Shown one piece after another: positions 1 through 5,663 of a stretch of 5,663 bases of DNA (its first letter is position 1; each line of letters starts with the position of its first letter). Under the pieces are notes generated by a model. It was not told where the DNA came from. It saw only the letters and a program-made list of their open reading frames with translations, and made no database searches. The translations under genes and the position numbers were made by a program. Origin of the DNA: a virus (lineage: Duplodnaviria > Heunggongvirae > Uroviricota > Caudoviricetes); IMG/VR virus record IMGVR_UViG_2541047172_000012; one strand, 5' to 3'.

Positions 1-16
1 CCCTCGTTTTGAGGGA
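1..16. repeat. Partial first ori iteron (O-binding site) inside the O coding sequence
   Basis: Reverse complement of 1..17 is ATCCCTCAAAACGAGGG, the start of the lambda ori iteron consensus, with internal inverted arms CCCTC/GAGGG. Truncated by the window edge. Confidence 0.5.
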
Positions 17-365
17 TGCACCATTCTGAGATGTTTTTATTTGGTCCAAACATGCCGCCTTGCTGCTTGATAATATTCATTCTGACGAGTTCTAACTTGG
101 CTTCATTGCACCGTTTGACAGGTAACTTTGTAATCTCGCTAAGTTGAGAATCGGTGATTCTGTCCATTGGTTTATTCCACCCATAGGTTTTACGCAGAAT
201 GGCAAGCAGCACTTTAAACTGTCGCTTGGTCAGATCTGCGCCCGAATAAGCCTCAAGCAGCATATTTGATAGTCTGGCGTAACCATCATCGAGATCTGCC
301 ACATTACGCTCCTGTCCGGCAAAGTTACCTCTGCCGAAGTTGAGTATTTTTGCTGTATTTGTCAT
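1..365 (-). CDS. O: Replication initiator protein O, N-terminal 121 codons; gene continues past the window start
   Basis: Reverse-complement translation from ATG at 365..363 reads MTNTAKILNFGRGNFAGQERNVADLDDGYARLSNMLLEAYSGADLTKRQFKVLLAILRKTYGWNKPMDRITDSQLSEITKLPVKRCNEAKLELVRMNIIKQQGGMFGPNKNISEWCIPQNEG, which matches lambda O as I recall it. Absent from the ORF track because it runs off the window and the track shows another frame (325..684). Confidence 0.95.
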   Translation of the reverse strand, partial: MTNTAKILNFGRGNFAGQERNVADLDDGYARLSNMLLEAYSGADLTKRQFKVLLAILRKTYGWNKPMDRITDSQLSEITKLPVKRCNEAKLELVRMNIIKQQGGMFGPNKNISEWCIPQNE

Positions 366-368
366 AAT
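340..368 (+). promoter_or_regulatory. Candidate oop promoter (Po)
   Basis: TTGAGT (340-345), 17-bp spacer, CATAAT (363-368), placing the start near 375-376 on the strand antisense to O/cII. Confidence 0.45.
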
Positions 369-375
369 GACTCCT

Positions 376-452
376 GTTGATAGATCCAGTAATGACCTCA
401 GAACTCCATCTGGATTTGTTCAGAACGCTCGGTTGCCGCCGGGCGTTTTTTA
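376..452 (+). ncRNA. oop: oop antisense RNA, about 77 nt, overlapping the 3' end of cII
   Basis: Position matches lambda oop relative to cII/O, and it ends in an intrinsic terminator (stem 426-432/439-445, U-tract 446-451). Exact 5' end is from recalled lambda coordinates. Confidence 0.6.
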
Positions 453-691
453 TTGGTGAGAATCGCAGCAACTTGTCGCGCCAATCGAGCCATGTCGTCG
501 TCAACGACCCCCCATTCAAGAACAGCAAGCAGCATTGAGAACTTTGGAATCCAGTCTCTCTTCCACCTGCTGATCTGCGACTTATCAACTCCCACAGCTT
601 CCGCTGTCTTCTCAGTTCCAAGCATTGCGATTTTGTTAAGCAACGCACTCTCGATTCGTAGAGCCTCGTTGCGTTTGTTTGCACGAACCAT
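398..691 (-). CDS. cII: Transcriptional activator CII (97 aa)
   Basis: Track ORF 398..751 contains MVRANKRNEALRIESALLNKIAMLGTEKTAEAVGVDKSQISRWKRDWIPKFSMLLAVLEWGVVDDDMARLARQVAAILTNKKRPAATERSEQIQMEF from the internal Met at 691..689, preceded by the lambda-like AAGGAAATACTTACAT leader. The upstream in-frame Met at 751 lacks an RBS. Confidence 0.95.
   Translation of the reverse strand: MVRANKRNEALRIESALLNKIAMLGTEKTAEAVGVDKSQISRWKRDWIPKFSMLLAVLEWGVVDDDMARLARQVAAILTNKKRPAATERSEQIQMEF
426..451 (+). terminator. Intrinsic terminator of oop RNA
   Basis: 7-bp GC-rich stem CGCTCGG/CCGGGCG (one G-U pair), 6-nt loop, followed by TTTTTT. Confidence 0.7.
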
Positions 692-705
692 ATGTAAGTA
701 TTTCC
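669..705 (+). promoter_or_regulatory. PRE promoter with CII-binding direct repeats
   Basis: TTGC (669-672) and TTGC (679-682) separated by 6 bp, flanking the -35 region, with a weak AAGTAT -10-like hexamer downstream. It overlaps the cII start on the opposite strand and points toward cro/cI antisense, as in lambda. Confidence 0.6.
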
Positions 706-770
706 TTAGATAACAATTGATTGAATGTATGCAAATAAATGCATACACCATAGGTGTGGTTTAATTGGAT

Positions 771-802
771 GCCCTTTTTCAGGGCTGGAATGTGTAAGAG
801 CG
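771..802 (-). promoter_or_regulatory. nutR site: boxB hairpin (771-785) and boxA (795-802), lambda type
   Basis: Reverse complement gives CGCTCTTACACATTCCA (boxA) and GCCCTGAAAAAGGGC (boxB), identical to lambda nutR as I recall. Located between cro and cII on the PR transcript. Confidence 0.85.
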
Positions 803-809
803 GGGTTAT

Positions 810-1019
<210 letters not shown>

Positions 1020-1034
1020 TTAGTACATGCAACC

Positions 1035-1063
1035 ATTATCACCGCCAGAGGTAAAGTAGTCAA
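1035..1063 (-). promoter_or_regulatory. PR promoter
   Basis: On the minus strand, -35 TTGACT (reverse complement of 1058-1063) and -10 GATAAT (reverse complement of 1035-1040), overlapping OR1/OR2 and driving cro. Confidence 0.85.
1037..1053. promoter_or_regulatory. Operator OR1
   Basis: TATCACCGCCAGAGGTA, exact match to the lambda OR1 17-mer. Confidence 0.9.
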
Positions 1064-1077
1064 CACGCGCGGTGTTA
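1061..1077. promoter_or_regulatory. Operator OR2, one central base different from recalled lambda OR2
   Basis: CAACACGCGCGGTGTTA versus lambda CAACACGCACGGTGTTA (reverse complement of TAACACCGTGCGTGTTG). Spacing to OR1 and OR3 is conserved at 7 and 6 bp. Confidence 0.85.
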
Positions 1078-1104
1078 GATATTTATCCCTTGCGGTGATA
1101 GATT
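1075..1104 (+). promoter_or_regulatory. PRM promoter giving leaderless cI mRNA
   Basis: -35 TAGATA (1075-1080) and -10 TAGATT (1099-1104), with the cI ATG at 1111 and no Shine-Dalgarno, as in lambda. Confidence 0.8.
1084..1100. promoter_or_regulatory. Operator OR3
   Basis: TATCCCTTGCGGTGATA, the reverse complement of lambda OR3 TATCACCGCAAGGGATA. Confidence 0.9.
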
Positions 1105-1107
1105 TAA

Positions 1108-1824
<717 letters not shown>

Positions 1825-2198
1825 AGAGGATAGATGGAGTTTAATGGCCATGAGTATCAAGCGGTCAAAAAGAAGTTCATCTATTCATTGAAAGCATAAG
1901 GCCATCTGAGTATATCCGTAATGATCTGGATATTGTCTATAACATCAATGACCGGACGATAGATATCGGTGAGCAGCGTCCTGTATGGCAGGGTGAGGCA
2001 GGTGAAAAAACGTCCTGCCATCAACAAGAATCAAGTGCATCCGCTCTCTGGACAGATGGAAAATTTATTGGATGCAAAAAGATATGAAATAACACCTGTA
2101 TAGCACGGAGCTTTCTCTGACCGATGCACTTGAAGTTGTTAGGGCTGACCCAGCCTGCTGTTTCTTTAGGTAAGAGAAAAGAGATTTAGGAGATGAAA

Positions 2199-2225
2199 GG
2201 TCGCAGAGGTGCGGCCTTTTTTATT
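2199..2225 (+). terminator. Intrinsic terminator closing the non-coding region downstream of cI
   Basis: 7-bp stem GGTCGCA/TGCGGCC (one G-U), GAGG tetraloop, followed by TTTTTTATT. Confidence 0.6.
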
Positions 2226-2234
2226 GAGAGTGGA

Positions 2235-2267
2235 TCTTGAACGGAAATTCTCAAGACTTGAGTCTTG
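2235..2267. promoter_or_regulatory. Overlapping inverted repeats upstream of the 173-aa gene (operator-like)
   Basis: TCTTGA-N10-TCAAGA (2235-2256) and CAAGAC-TTGA-GTCTTG (2252-2267) share an arm. A GCATGC palindrome follows at 2266-2271. Confidence 0.35.
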
Positions 2268-2293
2268 CATGCAAATCAATTCCTGGATAAACT
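2265..2293 (+). promoter_or_regulatory. Candidate sigma70 promoter for the 173-aa gene
   Basis: TTGCAT (2265-2270), 17-bp spacer, TAAACT (2288-2293). It sits just downstream of a terminator and about 30 bp upstream of a purine-rich RBS (AGAGAGAGAG) and the ATG at 2326. Confidence 0.3.
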
Positions 2294-2325
2294 CGATCTG
2301 AGTCAATAACTTAGAGAGAGAGCAA

Positions 2326-2847
2326 ATGGCAAAGTCAAACGTTAGCGTGCAGGCATTCAAGGACTTCCTTGAAGAGCTTATGTCGCTGAACATAATGAAG
2401 GAGGCCACCGCTCGAAATTTAAAAAACTCATCCGCTCGCCTCTTAACGGTAGTCCAAGAAGAGGAAATGGGTGATGTTACTCAGCTTGATGTGAATGAGC
2501 TTGCCGAGCGATACATCAACGCAACTGAGCCGAAGCCTAGCGACAGCAGCATTACTGCATATAAAAGCCGCATGGAAAGTGCAATCAAAAAGTTTGTAGC
2601 TTTCCAGTCTGGTGAAGAAATCCCATACACTCCGATTGACAAAGAATCCAGTGAGGAAAAAGATTTGACTGGCGAACCAACAAAAGTCGAAGGCAAGGCT
2701 AATGCACTTCATACCTATGATCTTCCAGTAGTTCTTCGACCTGAATCAGGGGTTACAGTAACGATTAAAGGCATTCCTAACGATATCACAAACGAAGAAG
2801 CCGAACGCATCTCTTCAATTCTGAAGGTTTACGTTCGGCCTCAATAA
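2326..2847 (+). CDS. Hypothetical acidic protein (173 aa); cargo gene at the position of lambda rexA/rexB
   Basis: Clean 173-codon ORF with a purine-rich RBS, MAKSNVSVQAFKDFLEELMSLNIMKEATARNLKNSSARLLTVVQEEEMGDVTQLDVNELAERY... No resemblance to RexA/RexB or any family I recognise; E/D-rich, no obvious HTH or hydrophobic segment. Opposite-strand ORFs overlapping it are shorter and lack signals. Confidence 0.7.
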   Translation: MAKSNVSVQAFKDFLEELMSLNIMKEATARNLKNSSARLLTVVQEEEMGDVTQLDVNELAERYINATEPKPSDSSITAYKSRMESAIKKFVAFQSGEEIPYTPIDKESSEEKDLTGEPTKVEGKANALHTYDLPVVLRPESGVTVTIKGIPNDITNEEAERISSILKVYVRPQ

Positions 2848-3020
2848 TGCAAAAGCATTCAGCACAATGTCCAACTCCCCAGTCCGACATTGATGCTGTT
2901 TAACCAGAGCCTCCAAAAGGAGCCCTTGTTAAGGTACACAATATTTGCGATGTAACCTTAGCGCGTCTGGTACATTTTTTCAAGCGGTTGTAGGGCTGCC
3001 GCCAATATGAGAAAACACAG

Positions 3021-3143
3021 ATGTCTACATACAATTTGAATGACCAATTCGATCGAGAAGTTCATGTGAATGCCTATGAACGGATAAGGCATGGAAATCT
3101 TGAACATGTGTGTGAGCATTATCGCTCAAGGCCACACCGCTAA
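3021..3143 (+). CDS. Candidate small ORF (40 aa, His/Cys-rich), or the body of a terminator-capped small RNA
   Basis: ATG at 3021 to TAA at 3141-3143 encodes MSTYNLNDQFDREVHVNAYERIRHGNLEHVCEHYRSRPHR, ending 7 nt before a strong intrinsic terminator. No convincing Shine-Dalgarno; a possible promoter (TTCAAG-18-CAATAT, 2979-3008) would make it near-leaderless. Confidence 0.25.
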   Translation: MSTYNLNDQFDREVHVNAYERIRHGNLEHVCEHYRSRPHR

Positions 3144-3150
3144 TCATCAA

Positions 3151-3179
3151 CCCGGCCTCCATGCCGGGTTTTCTTTTCC
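3151..3179 (+). terminator. Strong intrinsic terminator, positionally analogous to lambda tIMM
   Basis: Stem CCCGGC (3151-3156) / GCCGGG (3163-3168), 6-nt loop, then TTTTCTTTTCC. Confidence 0.75.
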
Positions 3180-3357
3180 TCTCGCCCAAAAAAACACATA
3201 ACCAATTGTATTTATTGGAAAATAAATAGATACAACTCACTAAACAACGCAATTCTGATCTCTCCTTACATCGCCGAGGCAATACACCCACGCTAAAAAA
3301 CAATACTATTAAATACAAAGCGTTGTAAAAAAACGCCCCGTTTTAGAACAAATTGTA

Positions 3358-3386
3358 TTGACCAAGTGAAGTACATATCGTACTAT
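3358..3386 (+). promoter_or_regulatory. PL-like promoter upstream of nutL and N
   Basis: TTGACC (3358-3363), 17-bp spacer, TACTAT (3381-3386), set in an AT-rich region about 190 bp upstream of N. Flanked by short inverted repeats (TACAAAGCGTTGTA 3314-3327, ACAAATTGT 3348-3356, AGTAC-N5-GTACT 3370-3384) but no lambda-type 17-mer operators. Confidence 0.5.
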
Positions 3387-3432
3387 TTAACCATCAGCAG
3401 GACGCTGGAAGCCAAATGGAACAGACTGGCAG

Positions 3433-3477
3433 GCTCTTTAAACAACGTCGACTCTCGACTACGTGGCTGAAAAGCCA
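3433..3477 (+). promoter_or_regulatory. nutL-like site: boxA (3433-3445) and boxB hairpin (3464-3477)
   Basis: GCTCTTTAAACAA resembles the boxA consensus (CGCTCTTTAACAA). Downstream, TGGCT-GAAA-AGCCA forms a 5-bp stem with a GAAA loop. Both lie in the leader between the promoter and N. Confidence 0.5.
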
Positions 3478-3575
3478 GATCACCCAACCACATAAGCTGT
3501 GGGATGCAATGCCGAAGCAACCGTCTCAGGAGGAGCTTCGAGATTGCATCGCCAAAGTTTATTCGGGAGGAATCT

Positions 3576-3848
3576 ATGTCCAGAAAAACAGAATTTAAAG
3601 GCACCGCAGCTTCTCGCCGTAGAGCTCGTCGCGCAAACCTGCAAAGTCAGGAGGCGATTAGCTCCGACAAACTACACAGGCCAACCCCATCACGAGTGGT
3701 CTTACAATGCAAACGCAAACCAGCAATGAGAGCAGAAGTAATAACACTGACAACGTTGACCAGAAAATATGAAGGCTCAACTTGTCTTCCAAATGTAGCT
3801 CTTTACGCGGCAGGCTACCGTAAATCCAAACAACTGACAGCAAGATGA
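3576..3848 (+). CDS. N: Antitermination protein N, P22 gene-24-like rather than lambda-like (90 aa)
   Basis: Start chosen at ATG 3576 with strong RBS GGGAGG (3565-3570); the track ORF begins at an upstream Met (3504) with no RBS. It has an N-terminal arginine-rich motif (TAASRRRARRANLQ) and a C-terminus CLPNVALYAAGYRKSKQLTAR that closely resembles the P22 N C-terminus as I recall it (LLPGVALYAAGHRKSKQITAR). Confidence 0.75.
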   Translation: MSRKTEFKGTAASRRRARRANLQSQEAISSDKLHRPTPSRVVLQCKRKPAMRAEVITLTTLTRKYEGSTCLPNVALYAAGYRKSKQLTAR

Positions 3849-3898
3849 CTTGTGTTGGTCGCCAGAAAATGAAATTAGGCAGCAAACCACTTATTTGA
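3845..3898 (+). pseudogene. Relic of a lambda/21-type N C-terminus in the +1 frame, overlapping the N stop codon
   Basis: Frame open from 3824; ATG 3845 to TGA 3898 encodes MTCVGRQKMKLGSKPLI, resembling the C-terminal residues of lambda N (ITCSGRQKIKGKSIPLI) and phage 21 N (VTCVGRQKIKLGSKPLI), both from memory. Confidence 0.45.
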
Positions 3899-3906
3899 GG
3901 TGATAT

Positions 3907-4158
3907 ATGGAATTTCATGAAAGTGCGATTTGTGATTTTCGCGCTAACGCAAATTCAGTAAAACCACAGCCAATTGCAGTTCTTTTTAAAACAATGGGTG
4001 CGTGGGCTGTTTTATGCTTCGCCGCTGACGACACTGACGCAAGAATGGCAATAGGACAAGAGATGGAGATGGACCCGACAAACGATGAATTCATAATTTA
4101 TGGCGCTCCATCTAATTACTTACTTGATACCTGCAACATTTACAACAAGGCTGCCTGA
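3907..4158 (+). CDS. Hypothetical small protein (83 aa), first gene after N in the leftward early operon
   Basis: ATG 3907 preceded by RBS GAGGTGA (3898-3904); MEFHESAICDFRANANSVKPQPIAVLFKTMGAWAVLCFAADDTDARMAIGQEMEMDPTNDEFIIYGAPSNYLLDTCNIYNKAA. It sits where lambda has ral or small orfs; I do not recognise the sequence. Confidence 0.65.
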   Translation: MEFHESAICDFRANANSVKPQPIAVLFKTMGAWAVLCFAADDTDARMAIGQEMEMDPTNDEFIIYGAPSNYLLDTCNIYNKAA

Positions 4159-4204
4159 TGGTGGCCTTTATTTTTGGCATAAACAACAGAATAAACACAG
4201 CACT

Positions 4205-4232
4205 GTGTATTCATTCCAACGAGTGAATACAC
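4205..4232. repeat. Perfect 9-bp inverted repeat with 10-bp spacer in an intergenic region
   Basis: GTGTATTCA (4205-4213) ... TGAATACAC (4224-4232). No adjacent T-tract on either strand, so it is not a typical intrinsic terminator. Confidence 0.5.
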
Positions 4233-4294
4233 GGAGCAATGTCGCTCGTAACTAAACAGGAGCCGACTTGTTCTGATTATTGGAAATCTTCTTT

Positions 4295-4320
4295 GCCCTC
4301 CAATGTGAGGGCGATTTTTT
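4295..4320 (+). terminator. Intrinsic terminator upstream of ea10
   Basis: Stem GCCCTC (4295-4300) / GAGGGC (4307-4312), 6-nt loop, then GATTTTTT. Confidence 0.65.
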
Positions 4321-4340
4321 ATCTGTGAGGATATGAACAG

Positions 4341-4709
4341 ATGTCAAACATCAAAAAATACATCATTGATTACGACTGGAAAGCATCAATAGAAATTGAA
4401 ATCGACCATGACGTAATGACAGAGGAAAAACTTCACCAGATTAATAATTTCTGGTCAGACTCTGAATACCGACTCAATAAACACGGCTCTTTATTAAATG
4501 CTGTATTAATCATGCTGGCGCAACATGCTCTGCTTATAGCAATTTCAAGCGACTTAAATGCATATGGTGTTGTGTGTGAGTTCGACTGGAATGATGGAAA
4601 TGGTCAGGAAGGATGGCCTTCAATGGATGGTAGCGAAGGAATAAGAATTACCGATATCGATACATCAGGAATATTTGATTCAGATGATATGACTATCAAG
4701 GCCGCCTGA
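4341..4709 (+). CDS. ea10: Ea10 protein (122 aa)
   Basis: MSNIKKYIIDYDWKASIEIEIDHDVMTEEKLHQINNFWSDSEYRLNKHGS... matches lambda Ea10 as I recall it, in the correct position upstream of cIII. Confidence 0.85.
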   Translation: MSNIKKYIIDYDWKASIEIEIDHDVMTEEKLHQINNFWSDSEYRLNKHGSLLNAVLIMLAQHALLIAISSDLNAYGVVCEFDWNDGNGQEGWPSMDGSEGIRITDIDTSGIFDSDDMTIKAA

Positions 4710-4732
4710 GCGCGGCGTTACCGCATACCAAT

Positions 4733-4756
4733 AACGCTTCACTCGAGGCGTTTTTC
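4733..4756 (+). terminator. Terminator-like hairpin between ea10 and cIII
   Basis: Stem AACGCTTC / GAGGCGTT (with one G-U pair) around an ACTC loop, followed by TTTTT. It may be a partial terminator or a structure affecting cIII translation. Confidence 0.4.
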
Positions 4757-4781
4757 GTTATGTATAAATAAGGAGCACACC

Positions 4782-4946
4782 ATGCAATATGCCATTGCAG
4801 GGTGGCCTGTTGCTGGCTGCCCTTCCGAATCTTTACTTGAACGAATCACCCGTAAATTACGTGACGGATGGAAACGCCTTATCGACATACTTAATCAGCC
4901 AGGAGTCCCAAAAAATGGATCAAACACTTATGGCTATCCAGACTAA
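4782..4946 (+). CDS. cIII: CIII, inhibitor of FtsH that stabilises CII (54 aa)
   Basis: RBS AGGAG (4771-4775); [54 protein letters not shown] matches lambda CIII. Below the track's length threshold, so it was found by manual translation. Confidence 0.93.
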   Translation: MQYAIAGWPVAGCPSESLLERITRKLRDGWKRLIDILNQPGVPKNGSNTYGYPD

Positions 4947-5058
4947 ATTCACTATCGCCACTTTTATTGGCGATGAAAAGATGTTTCGTGAGGCCGTCGA
5001 CGCTTATAAAAAATGGATATTAATGCTGAAACTGAGATCAAGCAAAAGCATTCACTAA
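4915..5058 (+). CDS. kil: Kil, host-killing and FtsZ-inhibiting protein (47 aa)
   Basis: Internal Met of track ORF 4789..5058: [47 protein letters not shown], with RBS AGGAG (4901-4905). It overlaps the cIII 3' end and the gam 5' end as in lambda. Confidence 0.9.
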
Positions 5059-5429
5059 CCCCCTTTCCTGTTTTCCTAATCAGCCTGGCATTTCGCGGGC
5101 GATATTTTCACAGCTATTTCAGGAGTTCAGCCATGAACGCTTATTACATTCAGGATCGTCTTGAGGCTCAGAGCTGGACGCGTCACTACCAGCAGATCGC
5201 CCGTGAAGAGAAAGAGGCAGAACTGGCAGACGACATGGGAAAAGGTCTGCCCCAGCACCTGTTTGAATCACTCTGCATCGATCATTTGCAACGCCACGGG
5301 GCCAGCAAAAAAGCCATTACCCGTGCGTTTGATGACGATGTTGAGTTTCAGGAGCGCATGGCAGAACACATCCGGTACATGGTTGAAACCATTGCTCACC
5401 ACCAGGTTGATATTGATTCAGAGGTATAA
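5013..5429 (+). CDS. gam: Gam, inhibitor of host RecBCD nuclease (138-aa long form; short form starts at 5133)
   Basis: [55 protein letters not shown]... matches lambda Gam. The internal start at 5133 (MNAYYIQ) has RBS AGGAG at 5121-5125. Confidence 0.93.
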
Positions 5430-5434
5430 AGCGG

Positions 5435-5663
5435 ATGAGTACAGCACTCGCAACGCTGGCAGGGAAGCTGGCTGAACGTGTCGGCATGGATTCTGTCGAC
5501 CCACAGGAACTGATCACCACTCTTCGCCAGACGGCATTTAAAGGTGATGCCAGCGATGCGCAGTTCATCGCATTGTTGATCGTCGCCAACCAGTACGGCC
5601 TTAATCCGTGGACGAAAGAAATTTACGCCTTCCCTGATAAGCAGAACGGCATCGTTCCGGTGG
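5435..5663 (+). CDS. bet: Bet (Red-beta) single-strand annealing protein, N-terminal 76 codons; continues past the window end
   Basis: ATG 5435 translates to MSTALATLAGKLAERVGMDSVDPQELITTLRQTAFKGDASDAQFIALLIVANQYGLNPWTKEIYAFPDKQNGIVPV, matching lambda Bet. Not in the ORF track because no stop falls within the window. Confidence 0.95.
   Translation, partial: MSTALATLAGKLAERVGMDSVDPQELITTLRQTAFKGDASDAQFIALLIVANQYGLNPWTKEIYAFPDKQNGIVPV

Follow-up and report, generated by a model that had tools for sequence, protein, structure and literature searches.

The stretch of DNA analysed here (IMG/VR record IMGVR_UViG_2541047172_000012, 5,663 nt; hereafter the window) carries the early regulatory region of a lambdoid prophage, in the orientation opposite to the standard lambda map. 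The 5' part of the replication gene O, which runs off the start of the window just short of the iterons of the replication origin (ori), is followed by cII, cro, the right operators OR1-3 and the repressor gene cI, and then by a 173-aa open reading frame (ORF), an intrinsic terminator, the leftward promoter PL with its operators (OL), nutL, N and the early-left genes down to the start of bet (Table 1). Judged from its sequence, this window is a mosaic, in which DNA of a lambda-immunity prophage is joined inside cI to DNA of a prophage of the type of VT2-Sakai, a Shiga toxin (Stx) phage; it is very probably through this join that Sakai-type OL1-3 sites and a lambda-type CI have come to stand in one window.

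The repressor side is that of lambda. The encoded CI is identical to lambda CI at 233 of 237 residues (the changes being T3A, K71N, R129K and D139G), its helices 2-3 (QESVADK...QSGVGALFN) are the same as those of lambda, and the DNA of its N-terminal domain (1111-1413) is 99% identical to lambda; its C-terminal domain is common to Sakai-type CI, and this exact protein sequence is widespread (10,875 index blocks). Real lambda operators score 13.8-22.8 bits on a weight matrix derived from all six of them, and the three best matches of the window to this matrix are three lambda-type 17-mers between cI and cro, namely OR1, OR2 and OR3 (20.7, 15.9 and 19.0 bits). OR2 (CAACACGCGCGGTGTTA) has G at 1069 where lambda has A, and is more symmetric (about 16 versus 13.8 bits). 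Among the loci fetched for comparison (L numbers), this G is found in most copies of a cryptic lambda-immunity prophage next to proA (L006, L007, L011, L012, L014) and in L015, L070, L075, L076 and L078, but not in the fuller prophages L005 and L008-L010. A further lambda-matrix match (13.2 bits, 326-342, TACCTCTGCCGAAGTTG) lies inside the start of O; lambda itself (L004, 6710) has it too, as do most related loci.

No lambda-type operator was found with the same matrix over 2850-3575, where the best score is 3.3 bits and a single 9-mer (at 2984) comes within two mismatches of TATCACCGC; no triple of lambda-type 17-mers overlaps PL, and the three repeats present there score -5.7, -11.3 and -10.6 bits. 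The lack of lambda operators near PL is real and no threshold effect. An earlier note on this DNA had described the lambda recognition helix, lambda OR1-OR3 and the absence of lambda operators near PL, and had quoted TACAAAGCGTTGTA (3314-3327), ACAAATTGT (3348-3356), AGTAC-N5-GTACT (3370-3384) and the promoter TTGACC-17-TACTAT; all of this agrees with the identity of the helices, the OR scores and the matrix scan, and each string lies where it was quoted. Its view that the repeats are unrelated did not survive, since they form one operator family and are, by their sequence, the putative operators OL3, OL2 and OL1 of the VT2-Sakai/Sp5 immunity type.

The assignment to this immunity type is based on several lines of evidence. 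Window 2850-3600 is 100% identical to VT2-Sakai, to the Stx1-converting phage and Stx2 II (both from strain Morioka V526), to Nil2, to phages 2851 and 1717, and to about 40 further phage records. In AP000422 (VT2-Sakai) and AP005153 (Stx1 phage), three 17-bp 'putative operators' are annotated that an offset of 651 places exactly on the three sites of Table 1, and AP000422 also labels PL as 'putative major leftward promoter'. Together with the VT2-Sakai OR sites (AAATACAATATGTACTT, AAATACACATTGTGCAT and CAGTACAGAGCGTAATA), the OL sites make up a family with the consensus AAGTACAnAnnGTACTT. A matrix derived only from the three Sakai OR sites, to which the window contributed nothing, was used to score and rank all 17-mers of the window (Table 1); in 200 shuffles its maximum score had a median of 10.0 and a highest value of 14.9 bits, so that OL1, at 15.7 bits, stands above all of them, and outside 3311-3385 the window has no Sakai-type site of at least 12 bits. 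Three Sakai-type 17-mers thus stand at PL, and two of them, OL2 and OL1, overlap the promoter. Operators of the 434 type (ACAA-N6-TTGT) and of the P22 type were rejected as candidates, since the repeats disagree with them in spacing and half-sites and are accounted for by their exact match to Sakai OL. The spacing of Sakai-type operators differs between the two regions (L003, 1733-1807 versus 3962-4036), the start-to-start distances from site 1 to 2 and from site 2 to 3 being 32 and 26 bp in OR and 25 and 33 bp in OL, a difference that may bear on pairwise cooperativity.

What follows PL is a lambdoid N-dependent early-left operon, in which a sigma-70 promoter and nutL precede an N gene with an arginine-rich N-terminus, followed by cIII, kil, gam and bet; the N protein is 100% identical to that of VT2-Sakai. 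The suggestion that the CI-controlled PL lies elsewhere, and that TTGACC-17-TACTAT is not the promoter of N, is hardly credible. PL, nutL and N are base for base those of functional Stx phages, the promoter is the annotated PL of VT2-Sakai, the terminator at 3149-3180 lies immediately upstream of it, and the window has no other cluster of lambda-type operators, the only other match being the one inside O. This terminator is labelled 'putative rho independent terminator for pRM transcript' in AP000422 (equivalent to window 3149-3177), and the stretch is 87.5% identical to the lambda segment between rexB and OL3.

Table 1 Features of the window and the basis of their assignment
Feature	Position	Strand	Basis
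O, 5' part, lambda-type replication gene	1-365	-	translation matches lambda O; 98.5% identical to lambda
cII, lambda-type	398-691	-	ORF list; PF05269 at equivalent place in L005-L014
cro, lambda-type	810-1010	-	ORF list; PF09048 Cro at equivalent place in L005-L014
OR1, OR2 (G at 1069), OR3, lambda-type	1037-1053, 1061-1077, 1084-1100		lambda operator matrix
cI, 237 aa, lambda DNA-binding specificity	1111-1824	+	Pfam HTH_3 and Peptidase_S24
Crossover interval	1678-1724	.	table of single-nucleotide polymorphisms: lambda-type (L006-type) alleles left, Sakai-type right
173-aa ORF (VT2-Sakai H0093), in the lambda rexAB position	2326-2847	+	annotation
40-aa ORF	3021-3143		ORF list
Intrinsic terminator closing the cI operon	3149-3180	+	terminator scan
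Sakai-type OL/PL module	3265-3400	+	total divergence from lambda-immunity relative L054 at 3264/3265
OL3, Sakai-type, AAATACAAAGCGTTGTA	3311-3327	.	putative-operator annotation; 9.7 bits, rank 4
OL2, Sakai-type, TAGAACAAATTGTATTG	3344-3360	.	putative-operator annotation; 12.5 bits, rank 2; covers -35 hexamer
PL: TTGACC (3358-3363), 17 nt, TACTAT (3381-3386)	3358-3386	+	promoter scan
OL1, Sakai-type, AAGTACATATCGTACTA	3369-3385	.	putative-operator annotation; 15.7 bits, rank 1; covers spacer and -10 hexamer
nutL: boxA-like GCTCTTTAA and boxB hairpin TGGCTGAAAAGCCA	3432-3480	+	AP000422 'putative N-utilization leftward' (3432-3472)
N antiterminator, Stx-phage/H-19B type, 90 aa	3576-3848	+	PF25694 N_peptide, E = 3e-32
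83-aa ORF, ea10, cIII, kil, gam, start of bet	3907-5663	+	annotations

The two halves of the window overlap within cI. In alignments, lambda covers window 1-1820 (98.5% identity) and VT2-Sakai covers 1414-5663 (99.4%), the overlap corresponding to the C-terminal domain of CI. Among the fetched loci, L006, L007 and L011 show no mismatch to window 19-1724; they represent a small degraded lambda-immunity prophage adjoining proA in E. coli, which is also present in the O157:H7 strains TR01 and JEONG-1266. Window 1678-4619, in turn, has no mismatch to common Sakai-type loci such as L017 and L019 (with three single-nucleotide polymorphisms, SNPs, between the window and L019 over 1678-5663) and differs from VT2-Sakai at one base (1795), where other Sakai-type loci match the window. 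Since the identity to L006 reaches up to 1724 and that to the Sakai type begins at 1678, the switch between parents falls within 1678-1724, 47 bp at the 3' end of cI that are identical in both. The right module (O, cII, cro, OR1-3 and cI to about 1700) would have come from the proA-adjacent cryptic allele, and the left module (the last 150 bp or so of cI, the 173-aa ORF, the terminator, OL/PL, nutL, N and ea10 to bet) from a Stx phage of the VT2-Sakai/Sp5 type.

Such a join is possible because the CI proteins of lambda and Sakai share a near-identical C-terminal domain, responsible for oligomerisation and cleavage. From residue 101 on, the CI of the window and that of VT2-Sakai are identical at 133 of 137 positions, whereas their N-terminal domains are only about 30% identical and their recognition helices read QSGVGALFN and QGGIGHWLR, respectively. 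The common C-terminus of lambda and Sakai CI had already been noted by Smith et al. 2012 (PMC3430580). At the DNA level, the parents are homologous at cI over about 410 bp (94% identity), and the longest run without a mismatch is 50 bp. The window holds no DNA of the Sakai-type N-terminal domain (of which GAGCTAGGTATGACGCAGGGTGGAATTGGACACTGGTTGCGCGG is an example stretch), and at CI, OR and cro it is not of the VT2-Sakai immunity type. Taken as a whole, the sequence is incomplete as a lambda-immunity switch, lacking lambda OL, and as a Sakai switch, lacking the Sakai N-terminal domain and OR.

This mismatch is exceptional. All fetched loci were scanned with both operator matrices and counted only where the OL region lies in the contig: the lambda OL triple accompanies the lambda N-terminal domain in 20 loci out of 20, and the Sakai OL triple accompanies the Sakai N-terminal domain in 41 out of 41. 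Repressor domain and OL type are therefore matched in 61 of 61 other loci, and mismatched only in the window and in one further IMG/VR contig, L015 (IMGVR_UViG_2531839234_000006, 6,777 nt), which is also the only IMG/VR contig returned by an exact, anchored junction pattern. L015 and the window share the crossover interval and are 99.7% identical; their lambda sides differ by 2 SNPs and their Stx-phage arms at 15 positions. In its ori region, L015 carries a 23-bp insertion (6504-6526), an extra iteron-like copy ATCCCTCAAATTGGGGGATTGCT that frameshifts O. The same insertion is found in the cryptic loci L006, L007, L011 and L012, at a site that would lie 28 nt beyond the first base of the window. 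This shared frameshift indicates that the lambda side of L015 stems from a defective element and that the hybrid is no free-living phage.

A looser pattern, allowing any crossover in the region coding for the C-terminal domain, added only L054 (IMGVR_UViG_2778261064_000020, locus 2100-5090), in which the switch is matched. The reciprocal junction, defined as a Sakai N-terminal domain and the C-terminal domain followed by TAGGAAGTAAG... and lambda OL, gave no match to the exact pattern, and the looser pattern found L050, which is matched as well. L054 has a lambda N-terminal domain and OR, then a cI 3' end and a 173-aa-ORF module identical to Sakai up to the equivalent of window 3264, and from 3265 on lambda OL1-3, with a sharp module boundary. 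By sequence, then, a stretch of about 1.85 kb, from the region coding for the CI C-terminal domain to 3264, is common to both immunity groups, and a double exchange through it keeps the switch matched, while a single exchange yields the arrangement of the window. L054, with lambda OL1-3, is the matched version with two crossovers, and the window looks like the version with one.

Several observations weigh against this account of the window, in which a lambda-type CI stands beside operators that it would not recognise. The junction is carried only by the 5.7-kb window and by the 6.8-kb draft contig L015. It is found in none of 5,426 complete E. coli genomes, where the best match to 1560-1960 reaches 98.0% and is of the plain Sakai type, and it is absent from 50,697 phage records, from GTDB representative genomes and from JGI metagenomes. 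From the genome of L015, IMG/VR has neither a contig with a Sakai N-terminal-domain cI nor one with the region downstream of a lambda-type cI, although short or non-viral contigs fall outside IMG/VR. The operator features in GenBank are labelled 'putative'. Finally, the one electrophoretic mobility shift assay (EMSA) found was made with lambda CI, which shifted oligonucleotides of VT2-Sakai OL1, OL2 and OL3 with an apparent KD of 5.4, 4.0 and 3.7 uM (PMC10742460), and the same paper attributes a report of cross-immunity between lambda and VT2-Sakai to Fattah et al. 2000.

The rarity of the junction bears directly on a first alternative, to which we give close to an even chance: an assembly chimera, in which a short-read assembler crossed, within one genome, from the cI of the cryptic prophage to the cI of the Stx prophage at the 47-bp identical stretch. 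In the short-read assembly graphs of strains with both prophages, paths evidently branch at the 3' end of cI. Three whole draft contigs with a Sakai N-terminal domain end there, at positions equivalent to 1552 (L046), 1555 (L048) and 1715 (L044), all in stretches identical between the alleles and the last one inside the crossover interval; L048 and L015 come from IMG genomes with nearby numbers (2531839237 and 2531839234). The junction is known from two short sequences, of which the window begins in the area of the ori iterons, and no closed genome has it, though 229 of the 5,426 cover at least 80% of window 1000-3600, the top-ranked matches being of the Sakai-type arrangement. The identical crossover interval and the near-invariant lambda sides of the window and L015, combined with Stx arms that differ at 15 positions, would fit independent events in different strains, and separate mis-joins would be expected to strike one and the same graph node. 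That no reciprocal junction was found with the exact pattern also speaks for a chimera. On the other hand, the same join occurs in two non-identical sequences, the switch is sharp and free of mixed or consensus bases, and assemblers with k > 47, or reads of at least 100 nt, would span the shared stretch. Real recombination between O157:H7 prophages is well documented (PMC8743559), and L054 shows a natural exchange in the same shared region. We thus regard a rare recombinant and an assembly mis-join as about equally likely origins of the join.

In a second alternative, lambda-type CI might still control PL, through weak cross-recognition helped by the cooperativity of three sites and by looping to CI bound at OR, 2.3 kb away. 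Lambda CI shifted all six VT2-Sakai operator oligonucleotides in the EMSA, at 3.7-6.4 uM, close to the value for lambda OR3 (3.07 uM; PMC10742460). Gln33 and Gln44 of the helix-turn-helix are conserved in both repressors, the operators of both families are 17 nt long, with A in the second and C in the sixth position, and the cross-immunity mentioned above, known from a secondary report, would fit as well. However, the comparison values being 0.21 uM (lambda OL1) and 3.1 uM (lambda OR3; Sedhom and Solomon 2023, PMC10742460), the Sakai values are 17-25 times weaker than lambda OL1, in the range expected for non-specific binding, and a text search of the paper returned no non-operator control. 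The lambda matrix is strongly negative at the PL sites, and both repressor types coexist in O157:H7 genomes as separate immunity systems. The tracking of operator type with N-terminal domain in 61 of 61 loci would moreover not be maintained if the specificities were interchangeable. Some cross-binding of lambda CI to Sakai OL is possible, and we argue that it is likely not functional, because of this strict co-variation and the strongly negative matrix scores; control of PL by the CI of the window is accordingly quite improbable.

A Pfam search returned no family match for the 173-aa, 40-aa, 60-aa and 83-aa ORFs, and the window is therefore without a candidate alternative repressor. The 173-aa protein is extremely common (10,900 index blocks) and presumed to be cotranscribed with cI in lysogens; in all ten contexts displayed, taken from the longest contigs, the exact protein stands with a Sakai-type CI, and it is also present in the lambda-immunity locus L054. 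The 60-aa ORF (3416-3598, + strand) lies in the PL leader, where it overlaps nutL and the start of N, and is called as a gene in many assemblies. Further downstream, Ea10 has Ser94 (window 4620) where lambda and VT2-Sakai have Pro, a variant confined to 90 index blocks whose contexts, in the longest contigs covered, are normal Sakai-type; an Rfam match to the cIII thermoregulator RNA Lambda_thermo (RF01804; 4769-4827, + strand, 88.5 bits) lies around the start of cIII; and Kil has Met37 (window 5025) in place of the Ile of lambda.

If Sakai-type OL1-3 and lambda-type CI are indeed joined, the CI of the window would occupy OR1-3 and not the sites at PL. The cognate protein of the latter would be a CI with a Sakai N-terminal domain, and no such protein is encoded in the window; we infer from the sequences that Sakai-type CI binds the PL sites and that the lambda-type CI of the window does not. 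PL, and through N the whole kil-gam-bet operon, would then lie outside the control of the repressor encoded in cis. PL, nutL, N and kil are undamaged and do not differ from their counterparts in inducible Stx phages. Transcription from an unrepressed PL, with antitermination by N, reads into kil, and Kil blocks division and kills the host. Since such transcription is harmful, a stable cell with this junction should have a Sakai-type CI in trans, and PL would be kept silent only where a Sakai-type prophage in the same cell provides it.

A reciprocal exchange between two resident prophages of an O157:H7-like chromosome would provide this supply automatically: neither hybrid cI gene would be broken, and each of the two repressors would act in cis at one OR and in trans at one OL. 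The two parents are in fact co-resident, in inverted orientation, in O157:H7 TR01 (CP033605; L012 at 0.30 Mb, reversed, and L061/H77 at 2.70 Mb, forward) and JEONG-1266 (CP014314; L014 and H93), and inversions bounded by prophages, via repeats of at least 5 kb, are documented in O157:H7 (PMC8743559). The complete scenario, in which the join is real and the Stx-type early-left arm is uncoupled from the adjacent repressor and silenced only by the CI of a co-resident prophage, is possible but doubtful in our estimate. If it is true, the dependency between the two prophages would be wired in, and the PL of the hybrid would be set free once the Sakai-type phage was lost or induced; mixed dimers, or mixed OL-OR loops, could also form between the two repressors through their shared C-terminal domain. 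TR01 and JEONG-1266 themselves carry lambda-type and Sakai-type CI with near-identical C-terminal domains, and mixed dimers are conceivable in such ordinary strains.

A real hybrid without a repressor in trans would instead be a defective remnant with a constitutive PL, in which N, Ea10, CIII, Kil, Gam and Bet are always made. The intact PL, nutL, N and kil, as in functional phages, would allow this, IMG/VR holds no Sakai-type cI contig from the genome of L015 (subject to the limit on short and non-viral contigs given above), and the frameshifted O means that L015 is no viable phage. Yet kil is intact, and there is no compensating lesion anywhere in 3265-5663. Compensating promoter mutations in L015 were considered and rejected: its SNPs near PL (3340 and 3368) are also present in the normal Sakai-type locus L041, and are thus inherited from that lineage and not new promoter-down mutations. 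We consider a constitutive PL unlikely.

These results bear on the four alternatives offered by the earlier note, of which a different PL has been dealt with above. Binding of the repeats by another repressor is the best supported of the four, in view of the annotated Sakai OL1-3, their likeness to OR and the co-variation with the repressor domain, the binding itself being predicted. The idea that leftward transcription is not under CI control stands for the CI encoded in the window alone, and that of a defective prophage is plausible, the sole other copy of the junction (L015) having a frameshifted O. New relative to that note are the two-parent mosaic joined inside cI, the shared C-terminal domain of CI that makes the join possible, and the prospect of an assembly artefact.

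All individual parts of the window are already known, namely the cI, OR, cro and cII of lambda, the OL, PL, nutL and N of Sakai, and the shared C-terminal domain. Its left arm is that of the VT2-Sakai/Sp5 immunity type, which also includes the Stx1-converting phage, Stx2 II (Morioka V526), Nil2, 2851, 1717 and the PA-series Stx2a phages: OL1-3, PL, nutL, N, the 173-aa ORF and the terminator are alike, whereas these phages have another CI N-terminal domain and Sakai OR1-3 and cro in place of the lambda versions. Compared with lambda and wild lambda-immunity prophages (L005-L014, L066-L078), the window has cII, cro, OR1-3 and cI that are 98.5-100% identical and in the same gene order, and an OL/PL module that, as in them, comes after the conserved terminator segment; however, all of these relatives have lambda OL1-3 before a lambda-type N, and the window has none.

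In heteroimmune laboratory hybrids such as lambda imm434 and imm21, which are also mentioned in PMC8630535, everything from OL to cro is swapped as one block, and OL and OR stay matched. The window resembles them in that recombination between flanking homologous sequences has given one lambdoid phage backbone the immunity specificity of another phage, but its exchange point lies between OL and OR. A limited literature search found no description of a natural arrangement mismatched in this way. The prophage-bounded rearrangements of O157:H7 (PMC8743559) are similar in that inverted homologous prophage segments recombine into hybrid junctions, but involve repeats of at least 5 kb, against the much shorter homology of about 410 bp at cI in the present case.

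If the join is an artefact, the 3' end of cI is a repeat of two O157:H7 prophages at which short-read assemblies break or mis-join, and odd immunity regions in short draft contigs should not be taken for biology. If it is real, the window would represent a natural lambdoid switch whose two operator regions differ in specificity, and the C-terminal domain common to the immunity groups would be a recombination bridge able to split OL from OR. Prophage arms could then be silenced via another prophage, which would bear on the stability of Stx prophages and on the cross-talk among the lambdoid prophages of enterohaemorrhagic E. coli.

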